Origin: Patescibacteria group bacterium
GTDB lineage: Bacteria > Patescibacteriota > Patescibacteriia > UBA2591 > JAQUPP01
Length of the DNA stretch: 64,000 bases
Assembly (NCBI GenBank): GCA_028716665.1
Contig: JAQUPP010000001.1
Coordinates: forward strand, 192,467 to 256,466
Direction of reading: 5' to 3'
A program made the position numbers and the translations under genes. The notes under the pieces are model-generated. The model worked only from the letters and a program-made list of their open reading frames with translations. It searched no databases and had not been told where the DNA came from. Shown piece after piece: positions 9,183 through 59,878 of the stretch. Each line of letters opens with the position of its first letter. The first letter of the stretch is position 1.

Positions 9183-9273
9183 TACTTCGACAAGCTCAGT
9201 ACTTTTACTTCGAGCCACAGCAGTGGCGAGAAGCGAATTCACCCTCTCCATCAATTTTTGGTATAATTTTTAT

Positions 9274-35704: not shown

Positions 35705-35871
35705 ATGATATAAGTATACTAAAAGTAACGGCCGTGTCAAATGATAACCAATGATAATTGGATAATCAGGTGATAATTGGGTATTGACATTTTTCAAAAA
35801 ATATGATATTTTAATAACAACCAAACAATTGGTTTGGGGATAATAGCACTTTTAAAAATAGGAGGTGTGCG

Positions 35872-36594
35872 ATGAAAAACATCGTGAACCAAAAAATGTC
35901 ACGAGGCCAAGGCAATGAGATTTTAAATAAACTCGAAGCTGCGGGTCTTGATGGTAAGCTTGCCCAGAAAATTATTGATTCAAAGGGCAATAAACTGGGG
36001 AAGGAGATAGTTGATTTGGTCGCTCTCAGTGGTAGCAAAGGAGTATTGGTATCACAGGCATCCTCAGAAGTTAAAGTCAGGGAAACTCAAATAAAGCGTT
36101 TACTTGAATGTAATGTTCATAAGGCGCTTAATATGAGTGAAGAAGAATTCAGAAATAGAGTTCCTCTCCCTGAGAACCGCCCCAATGCGTTACTGATTAT
36201 TGACATACTTGATTGTGAAAAAGGAATGAAATGCGCCAATGGTATAAACCGTCTTAGTCTCGCTGAACTTGAAGATGTGGTTATACTACGAAAATTGGCA
36301 TTCTATTGGATCTATGAAGTTGAAAACGGAAAAAAGATGTTAGGCAAGAGCCCTGATCAATGCGTTGAGATATTTAAAAAACAAGGACGCAGAGGGCTTA
36401 CTGCAAGAGAGGGTTGTTTCCTGTTGATTCAGAATCCGTATGTTTTGGAAGATCACTTTATAGATCTTCCCGGCTCTCGCTATGACTCCGGCTTCGTGCC
36501 TTGCCTCGACCTCGATGTCGGCAGGCCTGAGCTGGATTCCCGCTATTCCTTCTATTCTTACTCTCGCTATGGTTCGGCTTCTTGCGGGAGTTAG
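35872..36594 (+). CDS. Hypothetical protein (240 aa) with a Ser/Tyr-rich C-terminal tail
   Basis: Strong SD AGGAGGT. GC is visibly higher than in neighbouring genes. Followed by a strong terminator. Confidence 0.5.
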   Translation: MKNIVNQKMSRGQGNEILNKLEAAGLDGKLAQKIIDSKGNKLGKEIVDLVALSGSKGVLVSQASSEVKVRETQIKRLLECNVHKALNMSEEEFRNRVPLPENRPNALLIIDILDCEKGMKCANGINRLSLAELEDVVILRKLAFYWIYEVENGKKMLGKSPDQCVEIFKKQGRRGLTAREGCFLLIQNPYVLEDHFIDLPGSRYDSGFVPCLDLDVGRPELDSRYSFYSYSRYGSASCGS

Positions 36595-36637
36595 GAAACT
36601 CGGTTCTCGGTATTTGGAAACTTGGAAATTAATTATT

Positions 36638-36672
36638 CCCCCAACACAAAGTGTCGGGGGAATTTATTTTTT
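36638..36672 (+). terminator. Rho-independent terminator
   Basis: cccccaacacaaagtgtcgggggaatttattttttt. Confidence 0.65.
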
Positions 36673-36786
36673 TCTAAAATTAAAAAGTTATTAACAGGTT
36701 TTCCGCAGGTTATAAACTTACGATATATAGACAGCTATATTATAATAATACATAAGATTTAAATTAAATTATTTTTTTTAAAACAA

Positions 36787-40002: not shown

Positions 40003-40188
40003 AATTCCGCGAAATTTACCCTCACTCAACGCTCCAAAACTTTAAAAATTATAACCATTTTGCTTAACGAAAAATTCACAACTCCTCTCCCGACTATAGT
40101 GGGATCGTCAAACAGATGAATTTTTCTACAAAATTCTTTAATTTTTTAAAGCTTTTCCGCGACTTCGTTCAGGTAGATTTCGCTATTA

Positions 40189-41331
40189 GTGATTATTAAT
40201 TATTTTATTAAAATTATGAGAGATCAAAATTTAGACAGAATGGAAAGGCAAGAAGAGAAAGATGTTGAAACAGAGAAAGTCAAAGAAATGGAAAAATTTC
40301 TTAAAACAATAGCCGAAAATTTGAGAGCGGAAGGAATTCCAGTTAATGATAATTGCAAGATTGACGAGAATAGTTTTAAAGAAATTTATTCTGAAGAAGA
40401 AATAAAAAATGATACGGAGAGAATAAATTTTTATAAATCAAAATGGAATCTTGAAGAACAGAAAAATCAAACAACCGGTGAAAAACTGGAAATGTTAACA
40501 ACTGCGATTTTTCATAAATTTCTTAAAGATAAATTTATTGTTGTCCGATCATCTGAGATAGATGACGTGGATAGAAAAGTTGATAATGTTATTATAAAGA
40601 AAGGAACCAACGAGGAAGAGATTTTTGGGCTCTTTGATGCAGTCGGAGATGTTACTGATCGCCGTTATAAAGAAAAGGTGGAAAAAATAATGGAAAGAAA
40701 TAAGAATGGCGCTTCTCTAAAATACGGTTTTTCTATGGATGAAAATGGAAAAATACAGCCAAAAGCCATTGATAATATTCCTCTTTTTTACCTTGCCCTC
40801 CCCGAGAAACAACTAGAAGAAGGAATTAAAAATTTTGAATTTAATTCTACCTCTGAATACGAAAAGAAATTATTTGAATATTTTATTCTCAGCATTGAAA
40901 CTCAAATGAAGGGTCTGGAATTAAGAAGAGACATAAATCCAAAGTGCCAGGAAAAATTAAAATTTCTTAAAGAATCCTTAGAAGATGTTTTTAAAAAAGA
41001 ACGTCTTCAAAAAGAATTAGATAGCATGTTTGAAGATGATATGCTAGAAATCTTTGAGATTTTTCCCCTAATAAAGCAAGGAGAAACTCTGAAAAAAAAC
41101 CTCTTAAAAGAAGCATTACAAGATAGGTTAGAATATTATATCAATCATATTTCTAGTACAATAGAGTCTGCTTCGCAAAAAGGATTTAAATTGGATACTA
41201 AAGAAACCCTACAAAAAATACATGAAAATCTCTTAAGCGTAGAGGATTTTAATAATGCTAAAAAAATAGAAGCACTGGCTAAAAAAGAAGGAATTGAATT
41301 AAAGCTTCCAGAAGGAAATAAGCAGGTTTAA
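40189..41331 (+). CDS. Hypothetical protein (380 aa)
   Basis: ORF with an alternative start MRDQN at 40216. Helical and acidic. Confidence 0.45.
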   Translation: MIINYFIKIMRDQNLDRMERQEEKDVETEKVKEMEKFLKTIAENLRAEGIPVNDNCKIDENSFKEIYSEEEIKNDTERINFYKSKWNLEEQKNQTTGEKLEMLTTAIFHKFLKDKFIVVRSSEIDDVDRKVDNVIIKKGTNEEEIFGLFDAVGDVTDRRYKEKVEKIMERNKNGASLKYGFSMDENGKIQPKAIDNIPLFYLALPEKQLEEGIKNFEFNSTSEYEKKLFEYFILSIETQMKGLELRRDINPKCQEKLKFLKESLEDVFKKERLQKELDSMFEDDMLEIFEIFPLIKQGETLKKNLLKEALQDRLEYYINHISSTIESASQKGFKLDTKETLQKIHENLLSVEDFNNAKKIEALAKKEGIELKLPEGNKQV

Positions 41332-41428
41332 ATATTCGTTGAAAATTAATTTTTTATCAGAGAATTTAAAGCCGATATTTTGCCGGCTTTTAATTCTATC
41401 CCACACCCAATGGCGACGTCTCTATTTA

Positions 41429-41548
41429 GTGAGCACTATAAACACTTGTGAATAGTTTGTAGAGTAGCAACAAAGCTTGTTTCCCCCTTAAACACTCCTT
41501 TAAACAGGTTCTAATAAATTTTTCTTAGCCACCCCATTAAAAAAACGA
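41429..41548 (+). repeat. ~120-bp direct repeat, copy A, downstream of the 40189 gene
   Basis: Shares ACACTTGTGAA..GTTTGTAG and AAACACTCCTTTAA..AACAGGTTCTAATAAATTTTTCTTAGCCACCCCA with copy B at 42619..42751. Each copy is followed by a different terminator hairpin. Confidence 0.6.
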
Positions 41549-41669
41549 GTTTAGACTCGTTTTTTTAATAGAGAAGTATTGACAAAAAATCATAATTATT
41601 GTTATAGTAATTATAGATAAATAATCAATCAAAAGATTGTTTCTTAAACAATCTTAATAAGGTAAATAT

Positions 41670-42527
41670 ATGGGTGAAACATTTAGATCTCAGGAAGCAT
41701 TAGAAATTAATCCAAATAAAACAACAATTAATAAATCAGAAAAAAAAGAAGGTCTAACTAAAGAAGAGGAACCAAGATACGGCGAAATATTATATGATAA
41801 ATCATTAGTTTTTCACGGTGTTGGTTTTGACCTAACTAGACTCCGTTCTATTTTAGAAAAGGGTATTTTGTCAGAACAGGCAGCTCAAGCGAAGGGGTTA
41901 GAATTAACAAGAAATTTTGGCGGTTATAACCTGAGCGATAGTGTTTCCGTAGCGGAATCACCGGCAATAAATAATTCATTTACTTTCGGATGTTTTAATA
42001 ATTATATCAAGGGTGGAATTAGTTTTGTTATTGCGGACGAACATGCATTTAAAGCACCCAAAGGATCTTCGCAAGATAGTGGCTATCTAGATGAGGCATT
42101 TATTAAGCATGAGGTGGAAAGAAAAAATATAACTGGTGTTATGGTGCCTGCTGATTTACTAGATGCACCACTTGCAGATTTACCTTTAAATCTTGCCGAA
42201 ATGGGTTACAATTATACAGATAAACGCTGTAAAAAAATAATAAGCGATTTAGAAACCGAAACTGGATACCGATCTGATACCACAGAATTGGAAAAACTTA
42301 TAGAAAAGAAAGAAGAACTTGAGAACCAAGAAATTGATTATTTTGAAAAAGACAAACAAAGAAAAGATATTTTTGCACAAATGGAAAAATCTATGTCCCA
42401 ATATGTAGAGCAAGCATTTTCGCAAAAACTTGGGATTGATCATCCAACTTTGAAAGATGTCCTTAAGCTATATTTACCAAAATCAATGAAGATTTATAAT
42501 TCAGATGGGTTTGATATTTCTCTTTGA
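41670..42527 (+). CDS. Hypothetical protein (285 aa)
   Basis: AGGTAA RBS and a TTGACA-N17-TTATAG promoter. Preceded by the conserved leader hairpin. Confidence 0.5.
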   Translation: MGETFRSQEALEINPNKTTINKSEKKEGLTKEEEPRYGEILYDKSLVFHGVGFDLTRLRSILEKGILSEQAAQAKGLELTRNFGGYNLSDSVSVAESPAINNSFTFGCFNNYIKGGISFVIADEHAFKAPKGSSQDSGYLDEAFIKHEVERKNITGVMVPADLLDAPLADLPLNLAEMGYNYTDKRCKKIISDLETETGYRSDTTELEKLIEKKEELENQEIDYFEKDKQRKDIFAQMEKSMSQYVEQAFSQKLGIDHPTLKDVLKLYLPKSMKIYNSDGFDISL

Positions 42528-42618
42528 AAAAATTTGCCACCAAAGAAAAACTTAAGAATTAAGAAATAGTGAGACGGAATTTTTAGAGTAAAATAATAAA
42601 TCAAGCAAATCTGACCCT

Positions 42619-42751
42619 GTGTAGTGAACACTTGTGAACGGTTTGTAGGGTTTTACCAATTAACGACAAACTGGGAATGACCCATTTCCCCTCTCAAACA
42701 CTCCTTTAATTCCCTTAAACAGGTTCTAATAAATTTTTCTTAGCCACCCCA
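42619..42751 (+). repeat. ~130-bp direct repeat, copy B
   Basis: See copy A. It contains an internal duplication of CTCCTTTAA..CTTAAACAGG. Confidence 0.6.
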
Positions 42752-42824
42752 GGGGAAACAAAAAAATCTCTGTTTAACAGAGATTTTTTTGTTTTAATTT
42801 TTATCAAAGTCTCAAAAATAAAAT

Positions 42825-43490
42825 TTAAAAATCAGAATATTTTTCCCAGTATTTGTAAAATAATTCATTATTTTTTCTTATTCTCTTGGCGATTGTAGGG
42901 GGTGTAATTTCAGAAAATTTACCAAAATAATAATTCCAAATTTCTTTTTTTGAAGGGTTACTTAAAAGAAATTTAACGTGTTTCCAATGAAAAGATTGAA
43001 TAAAAATAAGGATTTTGGGGTTATTTTTAATTTTATATTTTTTAAGAATTAAATGAATATGGTTTGCCATAATTCGTTCCCGAAGGTAAATATAGACCCA
43101 CCATAACCAATTTTTAGTCGCGCAGGGATACATATTATACCACACTTCAAAAAAATCGGCACGTAATTCTTGTGGACCATCGACATTATAAAGCAAAATA
43201 TCATGGCCGTCGTGCCACAGCCGCTCTATATTTTCAAATGTTTTCACCATCGAAAGCGCGTACCGAAATTCACGCGACACTTCTTTCAAATTTTTTTTAA
43301 TAATCGAGACCTTCCTGAATGGTTTGTTTTTACAGTCATACTTATTAAATATACTTTCAGGGTTCCCATCTTTTTCCGGTTGCTCAAAAATAATAATATC
43401 CGGTTTATATTTTAAAACCGCCCGGGCCTGACGAAGATCTACTCTGTTTTGTTCGCGACAATTGAATTGATGAAATTTAGGCTTTATCAT
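42825..43490 (-). CDS. Hypothetical protein (221 aa)
   Basis: ORF with no recognisable motif. Confidence 0.45.
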   Translation of the reverse strand: MIKPKFHQFNCREQNRVDLRQARAVLKYKPDIIIFEQPEKDGNPESIFNKYDCKNKPFRKVSIIKKNLKEVSREFRYALSMVKTFENIERLWHDGHDILLYNVDGPQELRADFFEVWYNMYPCATKNWLWWVYIYLRERIMANHIHLILKKYKIKNNPKILIFIQSFHWKHVKFLLSNPSKKEIWNYYFGKFSEITPPTIAKRIRKNNELFYKYWEKYSDF

Positions 43491-43531
43491 TTTTTAAATT
43501 TATCAGTTAAATTTTTTAAGAATAGTCTAAA

Positions 43532-45802
43532 TTAATTTTTTAGCGTTACCTTGGTCAATTTCTCAATTAAATCTTTTAATTCCGGATTTGTTGATGTTTT
43601 TTTGTCTTCTGACTCAAGATTATAATCAACGATTTCTTTAAAAGTGATTTTCTGTTCCATTCTCCAATTTCTGATTTTTATGACCAGATTTTTTATTTTT
43701 TCAAATTCTTCTTCCGAGGCCGGGTTGATAAGTTCTTTGTCAATCTCTGGCCATTTTGCGATTATCAGCAAATCATTATTTTGTTTCAAGCCGGTCAATT
43801 GGCCGTAAATTTCCTCGGTAACAAACGGGATAAACGGATGGAGAAGTTTCAGTAAATTCAAAATGGCGGATTTTAGAATAAAGACTGTATTGTTTTGCGT
43901 TTCCGGATTTTCATTTTGGAATTTTGATATTTCCAAATACCAATCAGCGAACTCATGCCAAGTAAATTCATAAAGTTCTTTAGCCGCTTCGCCGAGTTCG
44001 TATTTTTCTATTTTTTTCGTGATTGAATCCGTAAGAGAACTCATTCGCGAGAGAATCCATTGGTCAGCCAATGTTATAGGCTTTAAGGATGAAATGGAAT
44101 CAGATTTATTTTCTTCGCATTTCATTTGAATAAAGCGACTTATATTCCAGAGTTTATTGATGAAATTTTTTGATGAAATTAAAGATCTCTCGTCAAAACG
44201 AACCGCTTGTTGATCATGATTTATTTGGAGAATCAAACCGAAGCGAGTCGCATCAGCGCCGTATTTTTCAATCAGCACCAAGGGATCAATGCCTGTACCC
44301 AATGATTTGGACATTCGTTTCCCGTCCAAAGCGAGAATTGTGGGGTGGATATAAACTTCTTTAAACGGCACTTCGCCCATAAATTCAATTCCGGAAAAAA
44401 TCATGCGCGTAATCCAAAGATGCAAAATATCTCTGGCTGAAGTGATCACATTTGAGGGATAAAATTTTTTTAAATCTTCAGTTTGTTTTGGCCAGCCCAA
44501 AGTGGCGAAAGGCCAGAGAGCGGAAGAAAACCAAGTATCAAAAGTGTTTGAATTGCCTTCCATGGGAATATTGTGCCCCCACCAAATTTGGCGAGAAATG
44601 CACCAATCGCGAATATTTTTCAGCCATTCTTCGGCGATTTTTTTCCATCGTTCAGGTTTGTAAACCACTTCATTTTTTTCTATGGCTGTTAAAACTTTTT
44701 CAGCCAAAAGTTTTGTCTTTAAAAACCATTGTTTTGAAAGCATTGGTTCCACCGTAGAACCGCAGCGATAGCATTTGGCCACATTATGAGTTATCTCTTC
44801 TTCTTTAACCAATAATCCCAGTTCTTTCAATTTACTGATTACCAACTCTCGCGCTTCAATAATTTTTTTGCCGTTAAATTCATCATTAACATTGATAATT
44901 TTTCCGATTTCATTGATTACTTTGATAAATTTTAAATTATGGCGTTCGCCAGTGTCACTGTCAGCCATGTCGTGAGCCGGCGTAATTTTTACCGCTCCGG
45001 TGCCAAAATCTTTGTCCACCATTTGATCGGCGATAATCGGCACTTCGCGATTTATAATCGGCACGATTACTGTTTGGCCGATTAATTTTTTATAGCGCAA
45101 ATCAGCCGGATTTACGGCCACGGCCGTGTCTCCGAGCATTGTTTCCGGACGGGTGGTGGCCACTTCAATAAAATCATTTGAATCTTTAATCGGATATTTA
45201 ATATGCCAAAGTTTGCCTTTTTCTTCCACGTATTCCAATTCCAAATCAGAAAGCGCGGTTTGATCTTTAATGCACCAATTAATCACTTTTTCGCCCTGGT
45301 AAATCATGCCTTTTTCCAAATAATGTTCAAAGGCTTTTTTGACCGCTGCTTGATAATTTTCATCCATGGTGAAACGGGTGCGGCTCCAATCCAATGAACA
45401 ACCCAATTGTTTAAGCTGATTTAAAATTATGTCGCCGTATTTTTCCCGCCATTCCCAAATTTTTTCCAAAAATTTTTCCTTGCCCAAATCAATGCGGGTT
45501 AAATTTTGTTTTTTTAAATCTTTCTCCACTACATTTTGAGTGGCAATGCCGGCGTGATCCGTGCCCGGGAGCCAAAGAGTTTTAAATCCTTTCATTCTGT
45601 AATGGCGAATTAAAATATCGGAAATGGTATTCTCCAAGGCATGACCCATATGAAGAGAACCGGTGATGTTTGGCGGAGCAATCATTATGCTGTAGGCTTC
45701 TCCATCTTGGTTAGGTAAATTATCCGGATTAAAAAAACCGCTCTCTTCCCAGAGTTTATAAATTTTTGATTCGTATTTTTTTGGTTCGTAAGCCGATTCC
45801 AT
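43532..45802 (-). CDS. valS: Valyl-tRNA synthetase, short form
   Basis: HIGH-type PPNITGSLHMGHAL and KMSKSLGTGIDP are present. Length is 756 aa and the C-terminal coiled coil is absent. Confidence 0.9.
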   Translation of the reverse strand: MESAYEPKKYESKIYKLWEESGFFNPDNLPNQDGEAYSIMIAPPNITGSLHMGHALENTISDILIRHYRMKGFKTLWLPGTDHAGIATQNVVEKDLKKQNLTRIDLGKEKFLEKIWEWREKYGDIILNQLKQLGCSLDWSRTRFTMDENYQAAVKKAFEHYLEKGMIYQGEKVINWCIKDQTALSDLELEYVEEKGKLWHIKYPIKDSNDFIEVATTRPETMLGDTAVAVNPADLRYKKLIGQTVIVPIINREVPIIADQMVDKDFGTGAVKITPAHDMADSDTGERHNLKFIKVINEIGKIINVNDEFNGKKIIEARELVISKLKELGLLVKEEEITHNVAKCYRCGSTVEPMLSKQWFLKTKLLAEKVLTAIEKNEVVYKPERWKKIAEEWLKNIRDWCISRQIWWGHNIPMEGNSNTFDTWFSSALWPFATLGWPKQTEDLKKFYPSNVITSARDILHLWITRMIFSGIEFMGEVPFKEVYIHPTILALDGKRMSKSLGTGIDPLVLIEKYGADATRFGLILQINHDQQAVRFDERSLISSKNFINKLWNISRFIQMKCEENKSDSISSLKPITLADQWILSRMSSLTDSITKKIEKYELGEAAKELYEFTWHEFADWYLEISKFQNENPETQNNTVFILKSAILNLLKLLHPFIPFVTEEIYGQLTGLKQNNDLLIIAKWPEIDKELINPASEEEFEKIKNLVIKIRNWRMEQKITFKEIVDYNLESEDKKTSTNPELKDLIEKLTKVTLKN

Positions 45803-49165: not shown

Positions 49166-49240
49166 GCCGCTATCGTCTAGTGGTTAGGACACCAGGTTTT
49201 CATCCTGGTAACCGGGGTTCGATTCCCCGTAGCGGTACCA
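49166..49240 (+). tRNA. tRNA-Glu (anticodon TTC) with an encoded CCA
   Basis: Acceptor GCCGCTA/TAGCGGT, anticodon stem CCAGG/CCTGG, loop TTTTCAT, T-loop TTCGATT, 3' ACCA. Confidence 0.85.
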
Positions 49241-50720
49241 AACCTACTTTTTGATGCGTAGATTGCTCAATCAGCTGATAGATAAGCGATATTTCGGCGG
49301 TTCCAAACTTCCCAGCTTTATATGTCACTCTTTGAGGAAATATAAGATTTTGAAATCGCTGTTTCTGTTCTAAATTCATATCGAACCACAATCTTGGAAT
49401 ATTCTTAATAAATTCTAGAGCATAATCAAGAGCTGATTTAATATCAAACTCTTCAATAATGGACTCGTTCATAGATAGCCTAGTCACGGCTATTTTTTCG
49501 TTTATACTCTCTTTTTCTTTAAGAAATTCTTCGTCGGTGAATAATTCTTTCTTTTTCATCTCAATAATTTTTTCTTTTTCTTTCTCTAATTTTTCTAACT
49601 CTTTTTTATATAATAAATTGTCCTGATTTAAATCTTTATATTTTTCCTGCCAAACATCAAGAACAATTTGTTTAAATAATTTTATATAATTTTCCTTGGG
49701 AGTAATTTTTTTTAAAAACTTTATAAAATCTTTTTCTATTTTGACTTTATGAATAGCTTTAGCGTAATGGGAACATTCCCGATTATGACAATGATAATAG
49801 GGGTATCTTTTGTTTCTTCCTCGAGACCAACTGGCCGTTAGGGGTTTTCCGCAATAACCACAAATGACAAAATGTCTTAAGGGAAATTCTGGATTTTGTC
49901 CATTTCTTGACCCTGAGTTAACGGATCTGCCCCGCATAATTAATTGCGCTTTCATAAATTCTTCCATATTTACCATCGACTGGTGTTTTCCTTCTATTTC
50001 TTCCTTGGTCCAAGGATTAATCAGTATTCCAGCATAAAATTTATTATTAAACATTTTTTTTATTGTTTGGGGATACATTGTATGACCCTTTTTTGTTGTT
50101 AGCTTCCATTGGTTTGCCATCTTGGCGATATCAGTAATAGAATAGATGCCTTTTAAATATTCTTTCCAAAGTTTTTTAACTAATTTAAATCTTTTTTCAT
50201 CAGGAATATCAATTTTTCTTTCTGTTCTGTCTCTACTCGCCTTATATCCGGTGGGAGGCACCCACGGCCAGATGCCTTCTTCAATTCTTTTTTGCATACC
50301 GCCAATAGTTCTTATTGTTCTTATGTCATTATCAAACTGAGCAAAACCAGCTAATACAGTTTCCATTAAATGCCCTTGAGGGTCGTCACCAATAGGTTCG
50401 GTTACAGAGTGGATACTTACTCCATATTTAGTTAATAAGACTTTAATACCAAAATGGTCGGAAGCATTTCTGGCAAGTCTGTCAACTTTCCAAACAATAA
50501 GGGCATCTACTTTGCCTTTATTCGCCTGACAAAATTCTAAAAGTTTAAGCAATTGAGTTCTTTCCTTGAATTTAGCCGATTCTCCTTCTTCTATAAATTT
50601 TTTAAAAACTTGAATTCCTTTATCTTTGGCATATTCAAGACAAGCCTTTTCTTGCATATCAAGGCTGGTCCCTTGTACCTGTTCTTTTGATGAAACACGA
50701 CAATAAATTATTCCATTCAT
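49200..50720 (-). CDS. Large serine recombinase (phage-integrase type)
   Basis: The resolvase domain IIYCRVSSKEQ contains the catalytic Ser. ALIVWKVDRLARN follows. A recombinase domain and zinc ribbon CGYCGKPL..YYHCHNREC are present. The last ~12 codons are read from the tRNA-Glu 3' half. Confidence 0.85.
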   Translation of the reverse strand: MNGIIYCRVSSKEQVQGTSLDMQEKACLEYAKDKGIQVFKKFIEEGESAKFKERTQLLKLLEFCQANKGKVDALIVWKVDRLARNASDHFGIKVLLTKYGVSIHSVTEPIGDDPQGHLMETVLAGFAQFDNDIRTIRTIGGMQKRIEEGIWPWVPPTGYKASRDRTERKIDIPDEKRFKLVKKLWKEYLKGIYSITDIAKMANQWKLTTKKGHTMYPQTIKKMFNNKFYAGILINPWTKEEIEGKHQSMVNMEEFMKAQLIMRGRSVNSGSRNGQNPEFPLRHFVICGYCGKPLTASWSRGRNKRYPYYHCHNRECSHYAKAIHKVKIEKDFIKFLKKITPKENYIKLFKQIVLDVWQEKYKDLNQDNLLYKKELEKLEKEKEKIIEMKKKELFTDEEFLKEKESINEKIAVTRLSMNESIIEEFDIKSALDYALEFIKNIPRLWFDMNLEQKQRFQNLIFPQRVTYKAGKFGTAEISLIYQLIEQSTHQKVGLVPLRGIEPRLPG

Positions 50721-51119
50721 AAATTTATTTTTTAAATAATAAAGGGTTAACCCTTACTTGGACACAATCTATTTCAAGAATAGATTATTAAAGCAGGTGT
50801 TAACCCCTATTTATCAAAACGACCGAAGTCGTATTGAATAAAAAATATTCTTGTTGATTGTGTCCACTGTTAATTATAGCGACTTGCAAGCTATCGTCAA
50901 GACGACAGCGATGTCGCCCCTTTTTTATTATGCTTAATTTCATCTTTCTGCCAAAAATCAAAAATAATATAAGCTTGAGCATAAAGATTATCTCTTATAC
51001 TCTCTATTTGTTGATCTGTTAAATTTTTGGCTTCTTTGCCGATAATCTCTCGGCATTTTTCTAAATCAAGCATATAATTTTAACTAATAAAGATACATTC
51101 GACCCTAAAATCGCGTCTA

Positions 51120-51515
51120 TCACGCTCTCTCACGCTCTGTCGATGCTCCCTGCGACTGATAGCCGTCCAGCATTGGTCTTATAACCTCATGTATATAATT
51201 TCTAGCTTGCGCGATAGCTTGCCCTACAGACCTTAACGTTTTCTCGTCGCTAAGAATGGCAAGTTCTTTTGTTTTCAAGTCAAAAATGTCCCGAATAACC
51301 GACTCCAAGTCTATATAAAACCAATCATTGTTTTGATTATGATTTTTTCGGAGAATATATTGACGTTCATCTGCCCAAACTTCTAAATCCTCGTCTATCC
51401 GACAAATTAATTGTTGTTTTGATAGTTTCATAATTTTAAATTTTGAATTAATTATCTCTCTATAGATAGATGGCGAAAATTCGCCCTCTTTACCCCAAAA
51501 ATAAAAAACCCTCAT
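51120..51515 (-). CDS. Hypothetical protein (131 aa or shorter)
   Basis: ORF in the island with an alternative start MKLSKQQ. Confidence 0.4.
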   Translation of the reverse strand: MRVFYFWGKEGEFSPSIYREIINSKFKIMKLSKQQLICRIDEDLEVWADERQYILRKNHNQNNDWFYIDLESVIRDIFDLKTKELAILSDEKTLRSVGQAIAQARNYIHEVIRPMLDGYQSQGASTERERA

Positions 51516-51564
51516 ATTTATGAGAGTTTTAATGACAACTATTATAACTTATTAAGGTGATTAA

Positions 51565-52548
51565 TTATTCATTGTCATCGCGTATTTTTGGCGTTTGTTC
51601 CTTATAAAATTCTTCTATACCTAAATCATCTTTATCATTCCTATTTTTTGAATCTTTTTTTTCTACATCTTCCGATTTGAGAGGAATTAATGTAATTTTT
51701 ATCTGATATGAATTTACTTTTTTCTTTTTAAGGGGATTGTAATGATTATATGGGAAAAATGGGTCATAATCTATTTTAAAATAATCTTGAAGATTTTTTG
51801 CTAATTTTTCTTTAGCTTTTATATATGAATCCTTTGCTTCTGAATTTTGAGGGGTTATTTCTCCATAATTATCTGCTAAAATCTTTAAAAATGTCCATTG
51901 TATATCTGGTTTTGTTTGCCTCTTGTCTTCAAACCCCATTGTTTTATAGCTCAACCTTTCTTTATATTGTCTAACTTGAATTAAAATATTCTCTTTATCT
52001 TCAAATTTAATAATGAAATTTTCCCATATTGTTCCAGCTGGCAGTTTATAAGGGAACTTACCTTCATTTGATGATTTATTCTCTTGAATAATGGTGTCTA
52101 AAAATAATTTTTCATTAGCCATTCTGAGAAACTCTTTGTATTTATCCCTGCAATCTATAACCAATTTTTTTAATTCTTTATAATATTTATTCCACAATTT
52201 CTCTTTTTCCCCTCCAGCATGTCTCATTTTGGGGTGTAATTCGTATATATCGACAGGGCCCTCTTCAAACTTAAGTTCGTTATCAGAAAAATGTGTCTCT
52301 ATAAATTTCCACAAAGAGTCAAATGATTTGTTAAAATCTTTATAATTTTTATTTAATCCAAGGTCTCCATATTCTGATAGAATAGTTTTTGAATATCCCG
52401 CATATTGAAAAAATATTTCACTATGAGGATTAATAGAATATCCATTATTATACAATTCATTAAGTAAACAATATATGCCTTCTTCGGGGAGGATTTTTAA
52501 GAATTTTTTAAATCTTCCTTTGTCGCTAAATTCTTCTATTGAGTCCAT
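51565..52548 (-). CDS. Hypothetical protein (327 aa)
   Basis: ORF in the island. Confidence 0.5.
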   Translation of the reverse strand: MDSIEEFSDKGRFKKFLKILPEEGIYCLLNELYNNGYSINPHSEIFFQYAGYSKTILSEYGDLGLNKNYKDFNKSFDSLWKFIETHFSDNELKFEEGPVDIYELHPKMRHAGGEKEKLWNKYYKELKKLVIDCRDKYKEFLRMANEKLFLDTIIQENKSSNEGKFPYKLPAGTIWENFIIKFEDKENILIQVRQYKERLSYKTMGFEDKRQTKPDIQWTFLKILADNYGEITPQNSEAKDSYIKAKEKLAKNLQDYFKIDYDPFFPYNHYNPLKKKKVNSYQIKITLIPLKSEDVEKKDSKNRNDKDDLGIEEFYKEQTPKIRDDNE

Positions 52549-52866
52549 ATTAAATCTTTAACAAAAATGTTTATATAGATATATAATATCATATATAAAA
52601 ATTTTGTCGCCTCTGGACATTTGTTATTTTTATGTTATCATGAAAATAACAATTTAATTTGCCTAAACTCATGGATTTTCTGTGGGCATGGCAATAAAAC
52701 CTGTGATGGATATTGAGCTCGTCGTTAGAGCACCATCACAGGTCTATATCCGAAAGGGTGTAGGGTGACGCAAGTCATCGCTAGCGGCGGGCTTTATGTA
52801 TTCCCGCCAAAAAATTTAAAAAAATAAAAGTTGAGTTAACATAATTAATAATTAATTTTTATTTAT

Positions 52867-53538
52867 ATGGACAAAGAAGAAAAGAAACTTATTACTAATA
52901 ATAACAGCCCTGAAACTTTTGACTCTTCTTCCTCTGCACATCATTTTAAGGGTAGTGAAGAAGAGAAAAGACTTACTGATCTTGTAGATGAACAAAAGAC
53001 TACTATTCAAGAAAAGGATGAATATATTTCATCTCTTGAAGAAGCTCTTGAAGAAAAGTCTATCGAAGAAGAAACTAAAGTTAAAAAACTTAGCGACAAT
53101 AATTTTTTAAAAAGTAAAAACCATAAAGTTTTATACATCATTATTACTGTTTTAGTTTTAATTATTATCGGTGGCGGACTTTTTTTCTTTTTGGGTAACA
53201 ATGATGTGCGAAAAGAAACACAAGCACCTAAAGGATTTGTTGATTGTGGTGAGACAACAGCATATCCTTCATGTTTTTTAAACAGAATGAATGAATGCTT
53301 GCCCGTAACCGAAAAAATGATGGACACAGACGACTCAGGAAATTTTATAGAGATAACAATTTTAGGGAAAGAAAATGAAACTTGTCATTTTCAGGCAAAG
53401 ATGAATAATATTTTAATAAGTGACTGTTATTTTCCAAAAGGGACGCTACAATATAATACTATTTGGCAAACCCTTGGAAGCTACAATGGCTCTAGCTCGC
53501 AAAAAGCAGTTGATGAGAACTGTAAGTCAGGATGGTAA
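52867..53538 (+). CDS. Hypothetical membrane-anchored, Cys-containing extracytoplasmic protein
   Basis: Acidic N-terminus, one TM helix (VLYIIITVLVLIIIGGGLFFFL), then a Cys-containing domain. Confidence 0.5.
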   Translation: MDKEEKKLITNNNSPETFDSSSSAHHFKGSEEEKRLTDLVDEQKTTIQEKDEYISSLEEALEEKSIEEETKVKKLSDNNFLKSKNHKVLYIIITVLVLIIIGGGLFFFLGNNDVRKETQAPKGFVDCGETTAYPSCFLNRMNECLPVTEKMMDTDDSGNFIEITILGKENETCHFQAKMNNILISDCYFPKGTLQYNTIWQTLGSYNGSSSQKAVDENCKSGW

Positions 53539-53574
53539 ATAGCACCGTGTAGTAAAATTTGACGTTATAAAAAT

Positions 53575-54573
53575 ATGAAAATAAAACAATTAATAAAAAA
53601 ATGCCCAAGAAGTTTAGAAGATGTTTTTATAGAAAAAATTACTAAACTCGCCATTAGTAAATTAGGAGGAAAAAACGCAGAAGATATCAAAAATAAAGTT
53701 GAAGAAATTACAAAGTTGTCATTTACTGAAGAAAATCTATCTAAGATATTAAAAATTTTAGAAGAATTACCAATAAATAATATTTATAGATTAGAAGAAA
53801 AAGATGGAACTATATCTCTTTGGCAGATTGTATCTTCTTTATTTTTTTGGGGATGGATTCTGATTTTGCTATTTCTCCCCTTTATTTATTATGAAGAATT
53901 TATGGAAAAAATAGATAATCCTTATGGTACCCTAATCTATATCTTGGCAACCACGTTATACTTATTTGTACCGCTTGGCATTTTATTTGCCTTTCGACCA
54001 AAATGGACAAAGGAAGTAAAACAACCAATAATTAAAAAAGATGATAAATTTATGAAAGAAAAAAATAATAAAACTATATCTCTTTGGCAGACTGTATTTA
54101 TATGGACAAGCATTTGGTTTTTAATTCTTTTTTTCTTTCTTTATGGAGTGAGCGATAAAGACGCAAACCTTCCTTATGCCCTATTATTAAGTATTTTTTT
54201 ATCTATACCGCTTGGCATTTTATTTGCCTTTCGACCAAAATGGACAAAGGAAGTAAAACAACCAATAATTAAAAAGCCGCAAAAAATAAAACAATTAATA
54301 ATTAAGTTATATTTTTTAATAAAAAGATACATGGCAGAAATGTTTGTAATTTTGGGTGCTTATCTTGTTGGGATAAATTCCACTCCCAAACAACAATGCG
54401 ATTCTTATAGTGGGTCACCTTTTTTTTCACATATATTGGGAGGAGGGGAAGGAGAGACGTGGACATGTTGGAATACTTACAATAAAGGAGCATTGGGCAT
54501 AGGGTGGATTATTTTGGCCTTAGGAATAGTTATTTTAGCAAATAGATATTTACCCAGGAGAGATAAAAAATAA
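53575..54573 (+). CDS. Hypothetical polytopic membrane protein with an internal duplicated module
   Basis: The segment (K/P)PLGILFAFRPKWTKEVKQPIIKK occurs twice, from a ~72-bp exact DNA repeat at ~53975 and ~54205. Confidence 0.5.
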   Translation: MKIKQLIKKCPRSLEDVFIEKITKLAISKLGGKNAEDIKNKVEEITKLSFTEENLSKILKILEELPINNIYRLEEKDGTISLWQIVSSLFFWGWILILLFLPFIYYEEFMEKIDNPYGTLIYILATTLYLFVPLGILFAFRPKWTKEVKQPIIKKDDKFMKEKNNKTISLWQTVFIWTSIWFLILFFFLYGVSDKDANLPYALLLSIFLSIPLGILFAFRPKWTKEVKQPIIKKPQKIKQLIIKLYFLIKRYMAEMFVILGAYLVGINSTPKQQCDSYSGSPFFSHILGGGEGETWTCWNTYNKGALGIGWIILALGIVILANRYLPRRDKK

Positions 54574-54574
54574 A

Positions 54575-55294
54575 ATGAAACTAAAATTAGCCACAAGAAT
54601 TTACATATGCTCATTCATCGTAATTTTTGGTTTAATTATTTTTTATCATCAATACAATATTGATTCAATAAACAAAAAAGAAAAAGAACAAAAAGAAGCG
54701 ATCAGAATCCAATCTTGGGAAAAAGCTCACCAAGAAGCCGAGGATGCGCTGCATTATGGCGAATTACATCCCAACGAGCCATATTCTGACGGAAAAGAAG
54801 TACTATCTCCCAATGGCGAATTATCGGTTTTTGTACAAAATTATCCGGACAGACCTAGTTTCAAGCTTAATGAAATTTGGATACGAGACAAAAAGAATCA
54901 CACGGAAAAATTATTAGTAGGGAATATGTTTGAAAATGATGTTCTCTGTGATTTTTCCTCAATAGTTTTTTCTTTTGATGCAAAAAAAATTTATTTTAAT
55001 AATTATAATGATGGACAAAATGATGAAATTTATGTTGCTGATATTTCTACTGGCGTATTAAAAGATATTTCAGTTGGCGATCCATTTGACGTTATAACCA
55101 AAGGAGTATATAAAGGAAAATTGTTTACCTCAAAACATAAATATTACGAAGAAGGAGGTTCTTATGACCATTGGTATATTATTGATGAAAATGATGGTCA
55201 TGAAATTAAAGATCTCGGCGAATCTACACCACTGGAAAAATTGAAAGAGGAATATGGTTTACTCCACTTATTTTCTGAATTGAACAGTGAGTAG
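54575..55294 (+). CDS. Hypothetical N-terminally anchored secreted protein
   Basis: ORF starting 2 nt after the previous stop, with an N-terminal TM segment. Confidence 0.5.
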   Translation: MKLKLATRIYICSFIVIFGLIIFYHQYNIDSINKKEKEQKEAIRIQSWEKAHQEAEDALHYGELHPNEPYSDGKEVLSPNGELSVFVQNYPDRPSFKLNEIWIRDKKNHTEKLLVGNMFENDVLCDFSSIVFSFDAKKIYFNNYNDGQNDEIYVADISTGVLKDISVGDPFDVITKGVYKGKLFTSKHKYYEEGGSYDHWYIIDENDGHEIKDLGESTPLEKLKEEYGLLHLFSELNSE

Positions 55295-55472
55295 CACAAC
55301 AAGGTAATTTTCTAAATAGTTTGAATAATTTTGAGGGCAGGGGTATTTAAAAAATGCTTTATTCAAGCAGTTTTTTTATTAACTTTTTCGTTAAAAATGC
55401 TATAATAAAAAGAGTTTATATAATTATAAAAAAGATAAAAACTATTCATAAATATTAGAAAAATTAGCAAAT

Positions 55473-56135
55473 ATGAGGAATAAAAAATATACAAATCCGA
55501 GACCCCAAATACCTGTAGCAACTAAACGAGAAATTAAGATTGAGGCTCGTCATTCTTGTTTAGTTTGCAAGGAAAGAGTTTCTTTAGTTTTACATCACAT
55601 AGATGGGAATCGTGAAAATAATGACTCCGATAATATTATTAACATATGTAGTAATTGTCACGGCATGGTGCATGATGGGAAAATCACAGCGATTGAACTA
55701 CGTGAATACAAGCGTAAAGTAAAAGAAGGTGACGAAGAATTGATTAAATTAAGAGAAGCGGTAAGTTACCTTTTAGGTTCAAAACAAATCAGTATCTCAA
55801 GCGATTTTGGAAAATTAAAATTTAAATATCAAAACCTATTAAATGATTACGGAGATAAATTAATTTTTTATCAGTCTTTTGTTTTTCTTATCCCAGAATT
55901 TTATATTGATAAGCGTGGCGAAGAAATTAGGGCTGTGGTGAGGGATTTACTAAATTTATCTTCAGATGAAGAAAATATGATTATCACCCACCTTATTAGA
56001 CTTGATTTAATTGAGATTATTGGAGGTTTGATTATCCTGAAAAATAAGGATGATGCAAAGACAGCTCTTAACGAATTAATAAATTCTCATAAAATTGAAA
56101 TAAATAAGCTTATCAAAAAATTTGTTGAATTATGA
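55473..56135 (+). CDS. HNH endonuclease domain protein (N-terminal HNH plus ~150-aa unknown C-terminal domain)
   Basis: CLVCKERVSLVLHHIDGNRENNDSDNIINICSNCHGMVHDG shows Cys pairs and H-N-H spacing. The stop overlaps the next start (ATGA). Confidence 0.6.
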   Translation: MRNKKYTNPRPQIPVATKREIKIEARHSCLVCKERVSLVLHHIDGNRENNDSDNIINICSNCHGMVHDGKITAIELREYKRKVKEGDEELIKLREAVSYLLGSKQISISSDFGKLKFKYQNLLNDYGDKLIFYQSFVFLIPEFYIDKRGEEIRAVVRDLLNLSSDEENMIITHLIRLDLIEIIGGLIILKNKDDAKTALNELINSHKIEINKLIKKFVEL

Positions 56136-58561
56136 AAAATCAGAAACAAATTTTATCAAAATTAATGAATCTTGATAATAAACAGGCTGATAAGTATCTG
56201 TCTAATTTTGCTAATGAAATTAAAAAAAGAATCATTTCCAGTAAGGATAATGATAAAATATTTGAAGCAATTGATATTCTTCGTGAGTTTGTTTATAAAG
56301 TTCCAAAGCAGACTATTAAGATAGTTAATCATATCATTCACAATCCGAAAGAGCCGAAATTAATAAAAAATCCAATAAGGTTTTTCTATGGTAAAAGCCA
56401 TTTGGATGTGGTTATAAAAGCATTAGAATTACTTGACCAACTTCGTTATATCTACGCCGATGGTGTTTTACCTATATTAGAAGAAATTATTTTGACTGGG
56501 GGTAAAGATGAAAAAAATAAAGCCATTGAAATTGTAAAACATTTTACAAAGTATGATTTTAATGTTCTTTCTAAATCAAAAATTGGGTATGGAGCACAAA
56601 GGAAAATCCTTGATTACATTTTGGTATGGTCGATTGAAAAACAAATTGAAAATTTTGATTTTATTGAAGTAGCCACACAAGAACTTTTAGGATCGTCAGT
56701 AGAGGGGACGACATCGGGAATAAATAAAGAGTCACAATATACCTTAACAATGCATTTTGGAGTTGTTCAGCCAACTGATTTTTTAAAAAATATTCGCCGT
56801 GAGACGATTAATTTAATATTCAATCTTTATAAAAACGTAACTGACGAACAGAAAAAGATAAGATTAGTAAAAATTCTTGAAGAGGCAGTAAGGACACCGA
56901 TTAATGTAGTTTATAGTGAAAACGTAAGAAAAATGATTATTGATGACGCTCAATATTTATTAACTATTTATAGAGAGATGCTTTTTAAGGACGGTAAATT
57001 AGTTGGTAGTATTCCAGTCGCTGAAGAAATAGAGAAGAGGTTTCATTGGTTTTATAGAAGTGGAAAATTAGATACACTTGAAGCTAGAAAATTAAGGAAA
57101 GATATTTTGACAGATTCTTTCTATTCTATATTTCGTTTATTTGCTGGCGATGATATTGTTTTTCGTGAAGAAGAAGGCCGAGACAAAGCAGAATCAAGGC
57201 GTGGTCAAGCTATTGATACTAAAGTCGCAGAGATTGATGACTCTAATTTAAATAAATGGATTAATACTCTTAATAAAGTTGCAGAACAAATTGGTTTTGT
57301 AGCCGATTGGCAATTTAATCCTTTTAAAATGTTTCTAAGAAAATTAGCCGCAAAAAAACCAGACATAGCCTCAACGATATTTAATGATGCTCTAGATAAT
57401 AATAAACCGATGAAAAATCTTGCTACGCATATTTTAGATGGTTTTCGTGATATTGGTCGTCTTGATTTATGGGATACAACTGTTGAAAAAATAATAGATA
57501 AGCAAGAAATTAATTTAATCAGTGCAATTATATATTCACTTAATATCAATAGAGAAGGATTTGATTTGTCAAAAGAAATTCGGGAACAGGATTTAATATT
57601 ACTTGAAGACATTGTCAGACTAACTGGGAATTTCACTTTTCTCACTAATCAAGAAGGAAATAATTGGACCTTACAGTACGCCATTATTAATGCGCTCACA
57701 AGGAATTTCAAGCGTGATCCTATCCGTATTGAAGCTCTTATACTTGAAATGATTCAAAAATATCAAGAAAAAAAAGACTCTCTTGTTAGAGAATTGGAGT
57801 TCGGGATTATAAGGGGAGGGGTTGATTATAGCGAATTTAGTAAAAAGGGTATTAATCTTTTAAAATCATTACTTGTGGAATTAGATAATTTAGATTGGGA
57901 CGCCCAGCACCTATTATTGAATCTTGGCAAAAAGGATATTCAAATAATCTTCGACATATTTTGGGATAGAATCGAGAAAGGTTCAAAGAAAAGAAAGGGT
58001 AAAAAAATTTTTGCTGAGGTGGAACGTTATCAGGCAATTCCTTACTATTTTAATGATGATTTGAAAAGATATCTTTCTACTTATCCGCAATTTCAGGTTT
58101 TAATTAAGAAATGGCTTAACAAAGTCACTCTTACTTGGTCGCCATATAATTGGAATATCGGTCATTTTCTTAAAAAGATAAACTCATTAACAGTTGTAAT
58201 TAAAAATATGATTGAATGTGGAGATGAAAATAATTTGACCAAGGCTGTGCAATTAATGGATCAATTTGAAGGTGGCAATATAGAATTAAGTATCGAAATA
58301 ATTAAAAAAACTAAAAGTAAGAAAAATATAGGCCATATTGAAGGGATGTTATTTTCCACTGGTGTAGTTTCGGGAGAGGATGGAATCGCACGCGTCCATG
58401 AAGCAAAAGCAGAGACCTTAAAAAAATATTTAAACGACGGGAATAAGCAAGTGAAAAAATTTGCCAAAAAAATGATTAAAAGTCTTAAGGATAGTGCAAA
58501 AAGAGAACGTCAGAGAATCCAAGAAGAGAAGCAGCTACGCAAGGTCGAATTTGAGGGCTAG
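56132..58561 (+). CDS. Large all-alpha (HEAT/ARM-like repeat) hypothetical protein, translationally coupled to the HNH gene
   Basis: 809 aa with no P-loop. Helical repeat composition. A 4-nt overlap with the upstream HNH gene indicates co-translation. Confidence 0.55.
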   Translation: MKNQKQILSKLMNLDNKQADKYLSNFANEIKKRIISSKDNDKIFEAIDILREFVYKVPKQTIKIVNHIIHNPKEPKLIKNPIRFFYGKSHLDVVIKALELLDQLRYIYADGVLPILEEIILTGGKDEKNKAIEIVKHFTKYDFNVLSKSKIGYGAQRKILDYILVWSIEKQIENFDFIEVATQELLGSSVEGTTSGINKESQYTLTMHFGVVQPTDFLKNIRRETINLIFNLYKNVTDEQKKIRLVKILEEAVRTPINVVYSENVRKMIIDDAQYLLTIYREMLFKDGKLVGSIPVAEEIEKRFHWFYRSGKLDTLEARKLRKDILTDSFYSIFRLFAGDDIVFREEEGRDKAESRRGQAIDTKVAEIDDSNLNKWINTLNKVAEQIGFVADWQFNPFKMFLRKLAAKKPDIASTIFNDALDNNKPMKNLATHILDGFRDIGRLDLWDTTVEKIIDKQEINLISAIIYSLNINREGFDLSKEIREQDLILLEDIVRLTGNFTFLTNQEGNNWTLQYAIINALTRNFKRDPIRIEALILEMIQKYQEKKDSLVRELEFGIIRGGVDYSEFSKKGINLLKSLLVELDNLDWDAQHLLLNLGKKDIQIIFDIFWDRIEKGSKKRKGKKIFAEVERYQAIPYYFNDDLKRYLSTYPQFQVLIKKWLNKVTLTWSPYNWNIGHFLKKINSLTVVIKNMIECGDENNLTKAVQLMDQFEGGNIELSIEIIKKTKSKKNIGHIEGMLFSTGVVSGEDGIARVHEAKAETLKKYLNDGNKQVKKFAKKMIKSLKDSAKRERQRIQEEKQLRKVEFEG

Positions 58562-58946
58562 TATTAAGCGATAGTTGATAGTTTATATCAAATTTAAATC
58601 TCTACCGAGAAAATCTCAAAAAGTTGATGCTATCTTGATAGTCATCAATCTTAAATTATTTTATTTTCTCAATCAGAGGATTAATATATTTCCTACGAGG
58701 GCGAATAGTGGCTAAATAACTGTTTTTGCCTTATAATAAAGACTTTTAGAGCATTATCATTATTTTCCTGTGATGTCGCCTTTAATATCAGTGCTAACCA
58801 TTAAAAAACTTTATATTTAATACACGACATCGCTATCGCCTAAAATTTTATAATTTTAAAAAAATTTCTAGCACAGGGACTGTATTCTTACCGACCAAAA
58901 CAATTTTTTAGGGGAATACCCCCCCTAGGAAATTTGATTAAAATAT

Positions 58947-59621
58947 ATGAGAAAAGAAATTAAAAAACATAGTGATAAAAATGCTTTCAGAGGTATGAAT
59001 AGATATTTTAATGCGGACCTTGTTGTTGATTCAAATTCATGGGAAGAGTTATTTGAAAATTTAGAAAGATATAAAATTTCATCAAATTTTAAAAATCAAT
59101 CATTTAACGAATACAAATTATTTAATTTAACCATTAAAATAGAATATAAATTAACCATGATACTTGAATTATTTTTAAAAGAGGGAAAATTGGTAAGGTC
59201 AGAAGCGTATAAACATATTTTGGAAACATGCAAAAAATATAGAAGATTGATCACTAAAAAAGAAACTGAGAAACTCTTAAAAAGAGAAATGAAAAATGAT
59301 GATTCAAATCTTTTTAGTCCCCATGTACTATTTTATATCGCTGGATGTGGCCTGGGGGATATTCTCCATATTTTTGAGAATTGCACGGATAATTTTTCAG
59401 ATAAAGATAAAATTGTAAAACAATTAAGAGGCTTTAAAGATAAAAGGAATGATTTTACTCATAATTTGTTATCTAGCAGGATTAATTCATTTAAGCTCTT
59501 ATCAAGAGCATTATTGGTTGGTCAAAAATTATATAATACTTTCGACCAGATGATTGAATCGCATTTTATTCGGGATAGTATTGTTGGTAACAGAATGATT
59601 TACAAATTGAAACTAAATTAA
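58947..59621 (+). CDS. HEPN-domain Abi-like (Abi_2/AbiD-F type) protein
   Basis: RNDFTHN fits the HEPN R-x4-H motif within a helical ~220-aa protein, typical of abortive-infection HEPN proteins. It lies in the island. Confidence 0.45.
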   Translation: MRKEIKKHSDKNAFRGMNRYFNADLVVDSNSWEELFENLERYKISSNFKNQSFNEYKLFNLTIKIEYKLTMILELFLKEGKLVRSEAYKHILETCKKYRRLITKKETEKLLKREMKNDDSNLFSPHVLFYIAGCGLGDILHIFENCTDNFSDKDKIVKQLRGFKDKRNDFTHNLLSSRINSFKLLSRALLVGQKLYNTFDQMIESHFIRDSIVGNRMIYKLKLN

Positions 59622-59878
59622 AACTTTAGACAAGATTTATAATGAATTTAAAATGAGATAAAAATTATTTAATTACTGATTCAAATAACATACAGTAGTA
59701 TATATGTTTATTCTTAGAAAAACATAATTTATTACTAGCCCCATTTTTACTCATTGACACTTGCGAAATTCTCTTTATAATTAGCTATAATATTGCTCCA
59801 CAACTTTAAGGTTTCAATCAATTGATTCCAATTTTGAAGCGTCTGGGGTACCAAATTTAAAATATAAATTGAATCAAT

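Follow-up and report, generated by a model that had tools for sequence, protein, structure and literature searches.

What might a small nuclease gene be doing when it overlaps the gene of an 809-residue helical protein on a mobile island of a Patescibacteria group bacterium? The question is raised by positions 55473-58561 of a 64,000-nucleotide stretch of contig JAQUPP010000001.1 (assembly GCA_028716665.1, positions 192,467 to 256,466 of the forward strand), which is referred to in full as the window and is numbered from its first letter. A preliminary description of this DNA had proposed a two-gene, defence-like module, and the interpretation is supported by the comparative sequence analysis reported here, in which the two genes strictly co-occur, their genomic contexts are not those of housekeeping genes, and no metabolic family is matched. 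The pair is probably a two-component conflict module that functions without a nucleoside triphosphatase (NTPase), most likely in antiphage defence, and that travels as cargo of a serine-recombinase island, with an alpha-solenoid protein serving as the sensor or regulator of a docked toxic effector. Judged from comparative genomics, the locus exemplifies a large modular family of effector-plus-solenoid systems that has so far escaped annotation and bears strong hallmarks of immunity.

Both open reading frames (ORFs) lie on the forward strand at the positions first assigned to them: the effector gene, of 220 codons, occupies 55473-56135, and the solenoid gene, of 809 codons, occupies 56132-58561. 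The stop of the former and the start of the latter share the four nucleotides ATGA (56132-56135, forward strand), an overlap that was noted at the outset and can be read directly from the letters spanning the junction, gaattATGAaaaat. Of the 16 other loci with a separate effector gene, 7 have the same -4 overlap. In the deposited annotation the products are named 'HNH endonuclease signature motif containing protein' and 'hypothetical protein PHE59_00305'.

The 220-residue protein consists of an HNH nuclease, followed by a linker helix with a hinge and then by a winged-helix domain, an arrangement supported by an AlphaFold2 (AF2) model (pLDDT 83.5). The HNH (beta-beta-alpha-Me) core, at residues ~15-70 (55515-55682, forward strand), carries CxxC...CxxC zinc ligands and an HH...N...CH motif, and its HNH residues, already recognized as canonical, are invariant in a 43-member family alignment; motif, zinc site and fold all place it in the HNH endonuclease superfamily. 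The C-terminal domain of ~150 residues, which had been called uncharacterised, is real and well conserved, and can now be assigned as a long helix plus acidic winged helix (residues ~110-220; 55800-56132, forward strand) of a type common to effectors with different N-terminal domains. DNA binding by this winged helix was considered and judged unlikely, the domain being acidic. The pairing of an acidic winged helix with basic solenoid ends points rather to docking, and we infer that the domain acts as the adaptor that holds effector and partner together.

The partner is a confident HEAT/ARM-type alpha-solenoid, built of stacked antiparallel helical hairpins and with no catalytic fold, and is basic (isoelectric point 9.2), including at its ends. 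A Walker A motif is absent from the window solenoid and occurs in 1 of 41 family members, which corresponds to chance level; no NTPase family is matched in Pfam or NCBIfam, and no DNA-binding family match was obtained for the 809-residue protein. NB-ARC/AAA_14 domains are present on one distant fused representative only. The Walker A search and the solenoid fold agree with the earlier view of a HEAT/ARM-like protein that has no P-loop, and Pfam and NCBIfam yielded no metabolic-family match that would make it a housekeeping protein. Four solenoid motifs, GYGAQRK, AIPYxFN, WSxYNW and TGVVSGEYG, are near-invariant. Invariant motif positions of the solenoid include Y141, G152 and Q156, K219 and R222, D588, Y633 and P637, and G744, G748 and G751.

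An exhaustive profile search for the solenoid family retrieved 1,358 cluster representatives at a cut-off of E<=1e-3 (638 at E<=1e-30), distributed patchily over distant bacterial phyla and one DPANN archaeon; loci come from Patescibacteria, Aminicenantes, a Pacearchaeota (DPANN) bin, Gammaproteobacteria, Legionella, Bdellovibrionales and others. RefSeq labels the members only as 'hypothetical' or 'RelA/SpoT domain-containing protein'. Co-occurrence of the two genes, which had been put forward as a means of refuting the module, was counted in 25 loci with a near-complete solenoid gene and proved strict: an effector lies directly upstream or is fused N-terminally in all 25, as a separate gene in 17 (with junctions of -20 to +29 nt, mostly overlapping) and as a fusion in 8. 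The effectors include HNH proteins, DUF4365 nucleases of the PD-(D/E)xK type, PIN_12 proteins and directly fused RelA/SpoT domains, together with a second type of ~300 residues that resembles the N-terminal modules of proteins associated with prokaryotic Argonautes (pAgo), an unassigned type of ~450 residues, rarer fusions to TIR (TIR_2) or NB-ARC domains, and a module, encoded on a plasmid of Rhizobium, whose annotation reads poly-gamma-glutamate hydrolase-like.

The manner in which effector and solenoid are joined varies with the effector. Among 198 family proteins in which the N-terminal architecture was counted, 113 have no extension, 52 are RelA/SpoT fusions, 14 are fusions that contain the adaptor and 19 carry other extensions. 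The winged helix is present both in separate effectors and in the DUF4365 fusions, where single DUF4365-winged helix-solenoid chains (L017/P0198 and 13 other representatives) have it stop three residues before the solenoid start. RelA/SpoT fusions have no winged helix and are joined ~25 residues into the solenoid; their synthetase motifs are intact, and the domain is nearest to the small alarmone synthetases RelP/RelQ. A group of gut-bacterial proteins of 938-961 residues (L027-L035, from Muribaculaceae, Clostridium, Bacilli and Mycoplasmatota) also has an N-terminal RelA/SpoT domain and matches the solenoid family over the last ~80-130 residues only, in the TGVVSGEYG region; these proteins may be a distant sister family of the RelA/SpoT fusions.

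The effector type does not follow the descent of the solenoid. The window solenoid, whose partner is an HNH protein, is 66% identical to those of L001 (DUF4365 partner) and L002 (RelA/SpoT fusion) and 71% identical to that of P0002, but just 40-48% identical to the solenoids of other HNH-type loci; its closest relatives, at 71% identity, are RelA/SpoT fusions. Effectors are mixed in this way among solenoids 55-70% identical in four separate clades, that of the window and three more. Winged-helix identity, in turn, tracks effector type, with 52-59% within HNH forms and 26-32% across types. Furthermore, one prophage-like backbone (serine recombinase, terminase-like gene, ParB-methylase and LexA-like repressor) carries, at the same position, an HNH gene in L041 and a DUF4365 gene in L043. 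The mismatch between solenoid phylogeny and effector type and the swap on a shared backbone therefore indicate that whole effector cassettes have been exchanged repeatedly on a constant partner. Such exchange lends strong indirect support, of a comparative kind, to the idea that the solenoid is a sensor or scaffold.

The places in which the pair is found also speak for a mobile conflict system. Recombinase islands, prophage-like elements, plasmids and restriction-modification (R-M) flanks were seen in place of the syntenic housekeeping operon that had been named as a possible refutation. In 4 of the 11 annotated contexts an R-M system lies directly upstream of the pair, type III-like in L039 and L042, MmeI/Eco57I-like in L073, and HinP1I with Vsr in L075; in about ten loci a large serine recombinase lies within ~10 kb. 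Other neighbours are SRA, UvrD with trypsin, Fic, RhuM, a MazE-like gene, YhcG and NADAR, and plasmid copies (Rhizobium pC6.5d, Sphingobium pYGP1, Legionella and Pseudanabaena) are accompanied by toxin-antitoxin, integrase, insertion sequence and SIR2 genes. The conserved unit is the two genes alone, since no window neighbour follows the pair elsewhere; a conserved third gene 3' of the solenoid was considered and rejected, as the similar-sized ORFs found there in several loci prove unrelated.

Two of these contexts bear on where such elements insert. Two proteobacterial genomes (L039 and L072) hold the pair in the same TspO/DnaG/RpoD neighbourhood with different co-cargo, namely a serine recombinase plus type III-like R-M genes versus a MazE-like gene, an MmeI_N fragment and RhuM, which suggests that this neighbourhood is an integration hotspot. 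In the chromosome of an Aminicenantes member (L037), a full-length Mg-chelatase/ComM-like gene (5163-6683) and a 158-residue ComM fragment (14563-15039) flank the DUF4365-solenoid region, suggesting that this pair was inserted at comM, a known integration hotspot.

Taken as a conflict module, the pair could work as follows. The solenoid would be the constant part, and the 220-residue protein an exchangeable effector cassette that bears its HNH 'warhead' on a flexible hinge. Both genes, which overlap by four nucleotides, would be made from one transcript and coupled in their expression. The winged helix would then dock the effector at the N-terminal end of the solenoid, which is basic; docking is suggested by the strict co-occurrence, the natural effector-winged helix-solenoid fusions and the complementary charges, and its probable place near the solenoid N-terminus by the fusions in which three residues separate the end of the winged helix from the solenoid. 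At rest, the complex would keep the nuclease inactive until the solenoid recognised an infection-associated cue, whereupon the HNH domain, freed or activated, would cut DNA, and either the invader would be stopped directly or the cell killed by abortive infection. This last step is drawn from the alternative warheads: because RelA/SpoT synthetases, TIR, PIN and PD-(D/E)xK domains are generic toxic effectors, specificity must lie in the sensing. By analogy with such effectors, among which TIR, PIN and DUF4365 are of the sort that short pAgo systems employ, an abortive-infection outcome is plausible.

A number of observations weigh against this proposal. Many sensors that bind phage proteins directly have hypervariable patches, and the solenoid shows none, its entropy being 1.2-2.0 bits throughout. 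The near-invariant motifs, moreover, hint at an unrecognised activity or a ligand site, not a passive scaffold; given these motifs and the absence of a hypervariable surface, the solenoid could have a conserved ligand or an activity that has gone unrecognised. The winged helix is kept even where DUF4365 and solenoid are covalently fused, and may do more than tether, while in the PIN-type partners it is not detectable by sequence search. The family has hardly any representatives in phage collections, with 0 matches in INPHARED and 1 contig in IMG/VR, and it is not recognised by PADLOC, Pfam, NCBIfam or PHROGs. No description of it was found in the literature on DUF4365, HEAT, RelA/SpoT and defence, where it may exist under another name.

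A broader proposal is advanced more tentatively, and has perhaps somewhat less than an even chance of being right: that these proteins form a widespread, unnamed immune family of more than 1,000 clusters, distinct from Olokun and spread over bacteria of the Candidate Phyla Radiation (CPR), DPANN archaea, Proteobacteria and gut Firmicutes, in which an NTPase-free HEAT solenoid would itself sense infection and control plug-in effectors (nucleases, alarmone synthetases of the toxic small alarmone synthetase, or toxSAS, type, TIR and PIN) through an acidic winged helix or by fusion, the conserved motifs forming a new kind of ligand or trigger site. If validated, the system would add a large defence family that Pfam, NCBIfam, PADLOC v2 and PHROGs overlook, and would show that an alpha-solenoid can control an immune system without an NTPase. 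It would also provide a natural matched set, with HNH, DUF4365, PIN, TIR and RelA/SpoT domains on near-identical solenoids, in which to study unrelated effectors under one sensor. The findings are of relevance to Patescibacteria/CPR and DPANN, whose immune repertoires are poorly known.

The element that carries the pair in the window could be delimited by comparison with metagenomic relatives. One of these, L046, is ~90% identical in nucleotide sequence (its TsaD is 92% identical), runs collinear with the window to the left and to the right, and has no counterpart of positions 49238 to ~59660; it follows that ~10.4 kb of DNA were inserted in the window at the 3' end of a tRNA-Glu(UUC) gene (49166-49240, forward strand, identified by ARAGORN and by alignment with the relative). 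The island, 49238-59660, had been proposed earlier as tRNA-Glu-integrated, and is now both confirmed and given boundaries through blastn collinearity with L046 and L047, junction alignments and base composition (GC content 30.3%, against 34.8% in the rest of the window). Its left junction with the core, at 49237|49238, leaves the last three bases of the tRNA gene on the island side, and homology to L046 restarts at about 59658-59676, the right junction. The island starts with a large serine recombinase gene (49200-50720, reverse strand; Pfam Resolvase, Recombinase and Zn_ribbon_recom at E 6.7e-35, 1.6e-10 and 2.3e-9), presumed from its domains to be the integrase, and its cargo includes the HNH gene, the 809-codon gene and a 224-codon gene. 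A search for attachment (att) sites gave no long direct repeat of the tRNA 3' end, and none is expected for serine recombinases. Insertion at a tRNA gene, a site-specific recombinase and a relative without the insert, the features of a tRNA-integrated island, are all present.

The junction has some further peculiarities. The recombinase ORF ends inside the tRNA-Glu gene, overlapping it with its last ~13 codons, and the last ~12 codons and the stop come from core (tRNA) DNA; with the junction at 49237|49238, the C-terminus of the recombinase would change upon excision. Conversely, the terminal CCA of the tRNA is supplied by island DNA, and none is encoded in the empty-site relative. At the same site L046 has ~0.95 kb of unrelated DNA (8890-9858) between the break and the restart of homology, with two small CxxC...CxxC ORFs of 78 and 95 residues and a weak DUF4428 match, and the site thus appears to be a variable hotspot, not merely occupied or empty.

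Elsewhere in the island, the genes at 52867-55294 resemble those of membrane or secreted proteins of unassigned function. One of them (53575-54573) encodes a predicted membrane protein of 332 residues with an internal near-perfect duplication, in which a 77-nt repeat (53962-54038 and 54199-54275) is 97% identical between copies. Outside the island, two other segments of the window vary between strains. The segment at 35070-36682, which L046 and L047 (both ~90% identical) lack or have exchanged for other DNA, encodes a 211-residue protein with a PaaX_M/Cas2-like domain and a weak winged helix-turn-helix (35189-35824, reverse strand) and a 240-residue DUF5701 protein (35872-36594). At 40003-43550 (~3.5 kb, GC ~0.31), for which L046 has ~0.8 kb instead, there are three ORFs of 380, 285 and 221 residues with no Pfam matches.

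The immediate surroundings of the pair are AT-rich on either side, in line with what had been noted at the outset: the 5' spacer is of 178 bp and 20% GC, and the 3' spacer (58562-58946) of 385 bp and 29% GC. A consensus scan gave as the best promoter-like site TTAACT-16 nt-TATAAT with an upstream TG (55379-55406, forward strand, 10/12 matches), which lies 67 nt 5' of the HNH gene start. As a promoter of the pair this site is suggestive only, since the AT-rich region holds 26 promoter-like matches against 19.4 +/- 3.6 in shuffles, an excess over chance that is not clear. The flanking spacers match no Rfam family, and no conservation of them was found beside the pair in other loci. The 3' spacer is predicted to fold more stably than 100 of 100 dinucleotide shuffles (z = -3.2).

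The gene that follows, of 224 codons (58947-59621, forward strand), had been described as a HEPN abortive-infection-like gene. It has an RNDFxH (Rx4H) motif that is invariant across its 7-member family, and on this account the protein is possibly HEPN-like; a match in Pfam, PADLOC, NCBIfam or PHROGs, which would have anchored the name, is missing. In other loci it is missing from the surroundings of the pair, and it does not count as a conserved component of the effector-solenoid module.

Could the pair belong to a system that already has a name? Neither of two names considered for its architecture is suitable, ARMADA being DISARM-like and PANGU using small nucleoid-associated proteins. A more substantial candidate is Olokun, with its components OloA and OloB, reportedly described by Millman et al. 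in 2022. The pair would be a divergent member of that system if the solenoid were orthologous to OloA and the HNH protein had taken the place of OloB, the two cutting phage DNA as a 2:2 complex; this seems unlikely. OloA and OloB were compared as PADLOC profiles, and it is on this basis that the family is set apart. The OloA model does match the window solenoid (E 2.9e-6, residues 402-613 against positions 125-329 of 596) and 9 of 41 family members (best 1.2e-9), but the match spans about a third of the profile, in a class of folds for which weak spurious matches are possible in general, and it fades with divergence, to 2 of 33 fused divergent members and 0 of 10 of the most divergent ones. 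No OloB match was obtained with PADLOC for the HNH protein, nine other effector proteins or the 33 fused members. In addition, the solenoid has ~800 residues against 596 profile positions, and the helical or winged-helix domain follows the nuclease in the chain, while that of OloB precedes it. PADLOC would make no Olokun call at the window locus and, as the defining OloB feature is not present, the pair is not filed as Olokun. The earlier statement that no named system is matched must be softened by the distant, partial link to OloA.

A second alternative, more doubtful still, is that the pair is an addiction module of the toxin-antitoxin kind, in which the effector would be a toxin and the solenoid a large antitoxin, stabilising the mobile element with no sensing of phage. 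Its carriage by integrative elements and plasmids, the tight coupling of the genes and the use of HNH, PIN and RelA/SpoT, which are typical toxin domains, would all suit such a role. A conserved solenoid of 800 residues far exceeds the typical antitoxin, however; in type II toxin-antitoxin systems the antitoxin is small and labile and usually autoregulates by means of a DNA-binding domain, whereas the partner here has 809 residues and no DNA-binding match, and the single-chain effector-solenoid fusions cannot act through differential stability of two proteins. It is typical of immune systems, moreover, that effectors are swapped while the large partner stays constant, and that R-M genes lie alongside. 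Addiction and immunity are not mutually exclusive, the fused toxSAS CapRel being both according to one report (PMC9712102). Finally, it is very improbable that the HNH gene, as a selfish homing endonuclease or an aid to phage packaging, only happens to lie beside an unrelated gene, or that the pair serves the DNA metabolism of its element: the HNH core does match homing-endonuclease and phage HNH families (PADLOC/PHROG) and some carrier elements have terminase-like genes, but the HNH-solenoid pairing is strict, with 4-nt overlaps across phyla, the winged helix is common to non-HNH effectors, and close relatives have RelA/SpoT, TIR or PIN in place of HNH, none of which suits packaging or homing, so that co-occurrence and effector swaps effectively refute a free-standing homing HNH endonuclease.

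The preferred reading, a solenoid sensor controlling an exchangeable effector, can be set beside several known systems. It differs from STAND/Avs-type sensors, which are driven by an NTPase, in that the window solenoid has no P-loop core, and from the Cap5/McrA-type HNH nucleases of cyclic-oligonucleotide-based antiphage signalling systems (CBASS) in that neither a SAVED or other nucleotide-sensing domain nor a cyclic-nucleotide synthase is present in the locus. A closer parallel is provided by effector-associated domains (EADs), as set out by Kaur, Burroughs, Iyer and Aravind in 2020, where a small non-enzymatic adaptor likewise ties diverse effectors of adjacent genes to a constant core. EADs pair homotypically, each partner carrying a copy of the domain, and have STAND, MoxR or GTPase NTPases as cores (PMC7159879), whereas here the adaptor is on the effector side only and the core, bar one NB-ARC/AAA-fused outlier, has no NTPase.

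Short pAgo systems (SPARTA, SPARSA, SPARDA and SPARHA) also place the same warheads, namely the DUF4365/DREN nuclease, HNH and TIR, on a constant sensing core, and the DUF4365 and second-type effectors match PADLOC models of pAgo-associated restriction endonuclease (REase)/TIR proteins. Once triggered, short pAgo effectors act non-specifically, according to published accounts (PMC10810196, PMC12738770, PMC9097488). Unlike these systems, the present family has no Argonaute, APAZ domain or guide nucleic acid; its core is a HEAT solenoid, and coupling would be through the winged-helix domain or by direct fusion. CapRel, a fused toxSAS, is like the closest relatives of the window solenoid in being one polypeptide with an N-terminal RelA/SpoT synthetase and a non-catalytic C-terminal region. 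In CapRel the C-terminal domain both autoinhibits the enzyme and senses a phage capsid protein (PMC9712102), and the mechanisms of toxSAS proteins are treated in PMC11782079. The C-terminal part here is a HEAT solenoid of ~800 residues, unrelated to the small pseudo-zinc-finger domain of CapRel, and the effector of the window is a separate HNH protein; the likeness is one of logic, not of sequence.

Judged by profile similarity, Olokun is the closest named system to the pair. In it, the adaptin-like OloA binds a helical domain of OloB, a PD-(D/E)XK nuclease, and in vitro the resulting 2:2 complex breaks down some phage DNAs (10.1101/2025.07.10.664194). Both systems have two genes, are free of NTPases and combine a large adaptin-like or HEAT-type helical protein with a nuclease subunit, and part of the window solenoid bears weak similarity to OloA. 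They differ in that no OloB homologue is present here and the nuclease is of the HNH and not the PD-(D/E)XK type; in that the proposed partner-binding domain is a C-terminal winged helix, that of OloB being N-terminal and helical; in that the solenoid is ~200 residues longer, with OloA similarity missing from most of the family; and in the effector range, which is much wider (RelA/SpoT, TIR, PIN) and extends to single-chain fusions. By analogy, the pair probably works similarly to Olokun and, should the two solenoids prove to share a common origin, the family described here could clarify how Olokun itself works.

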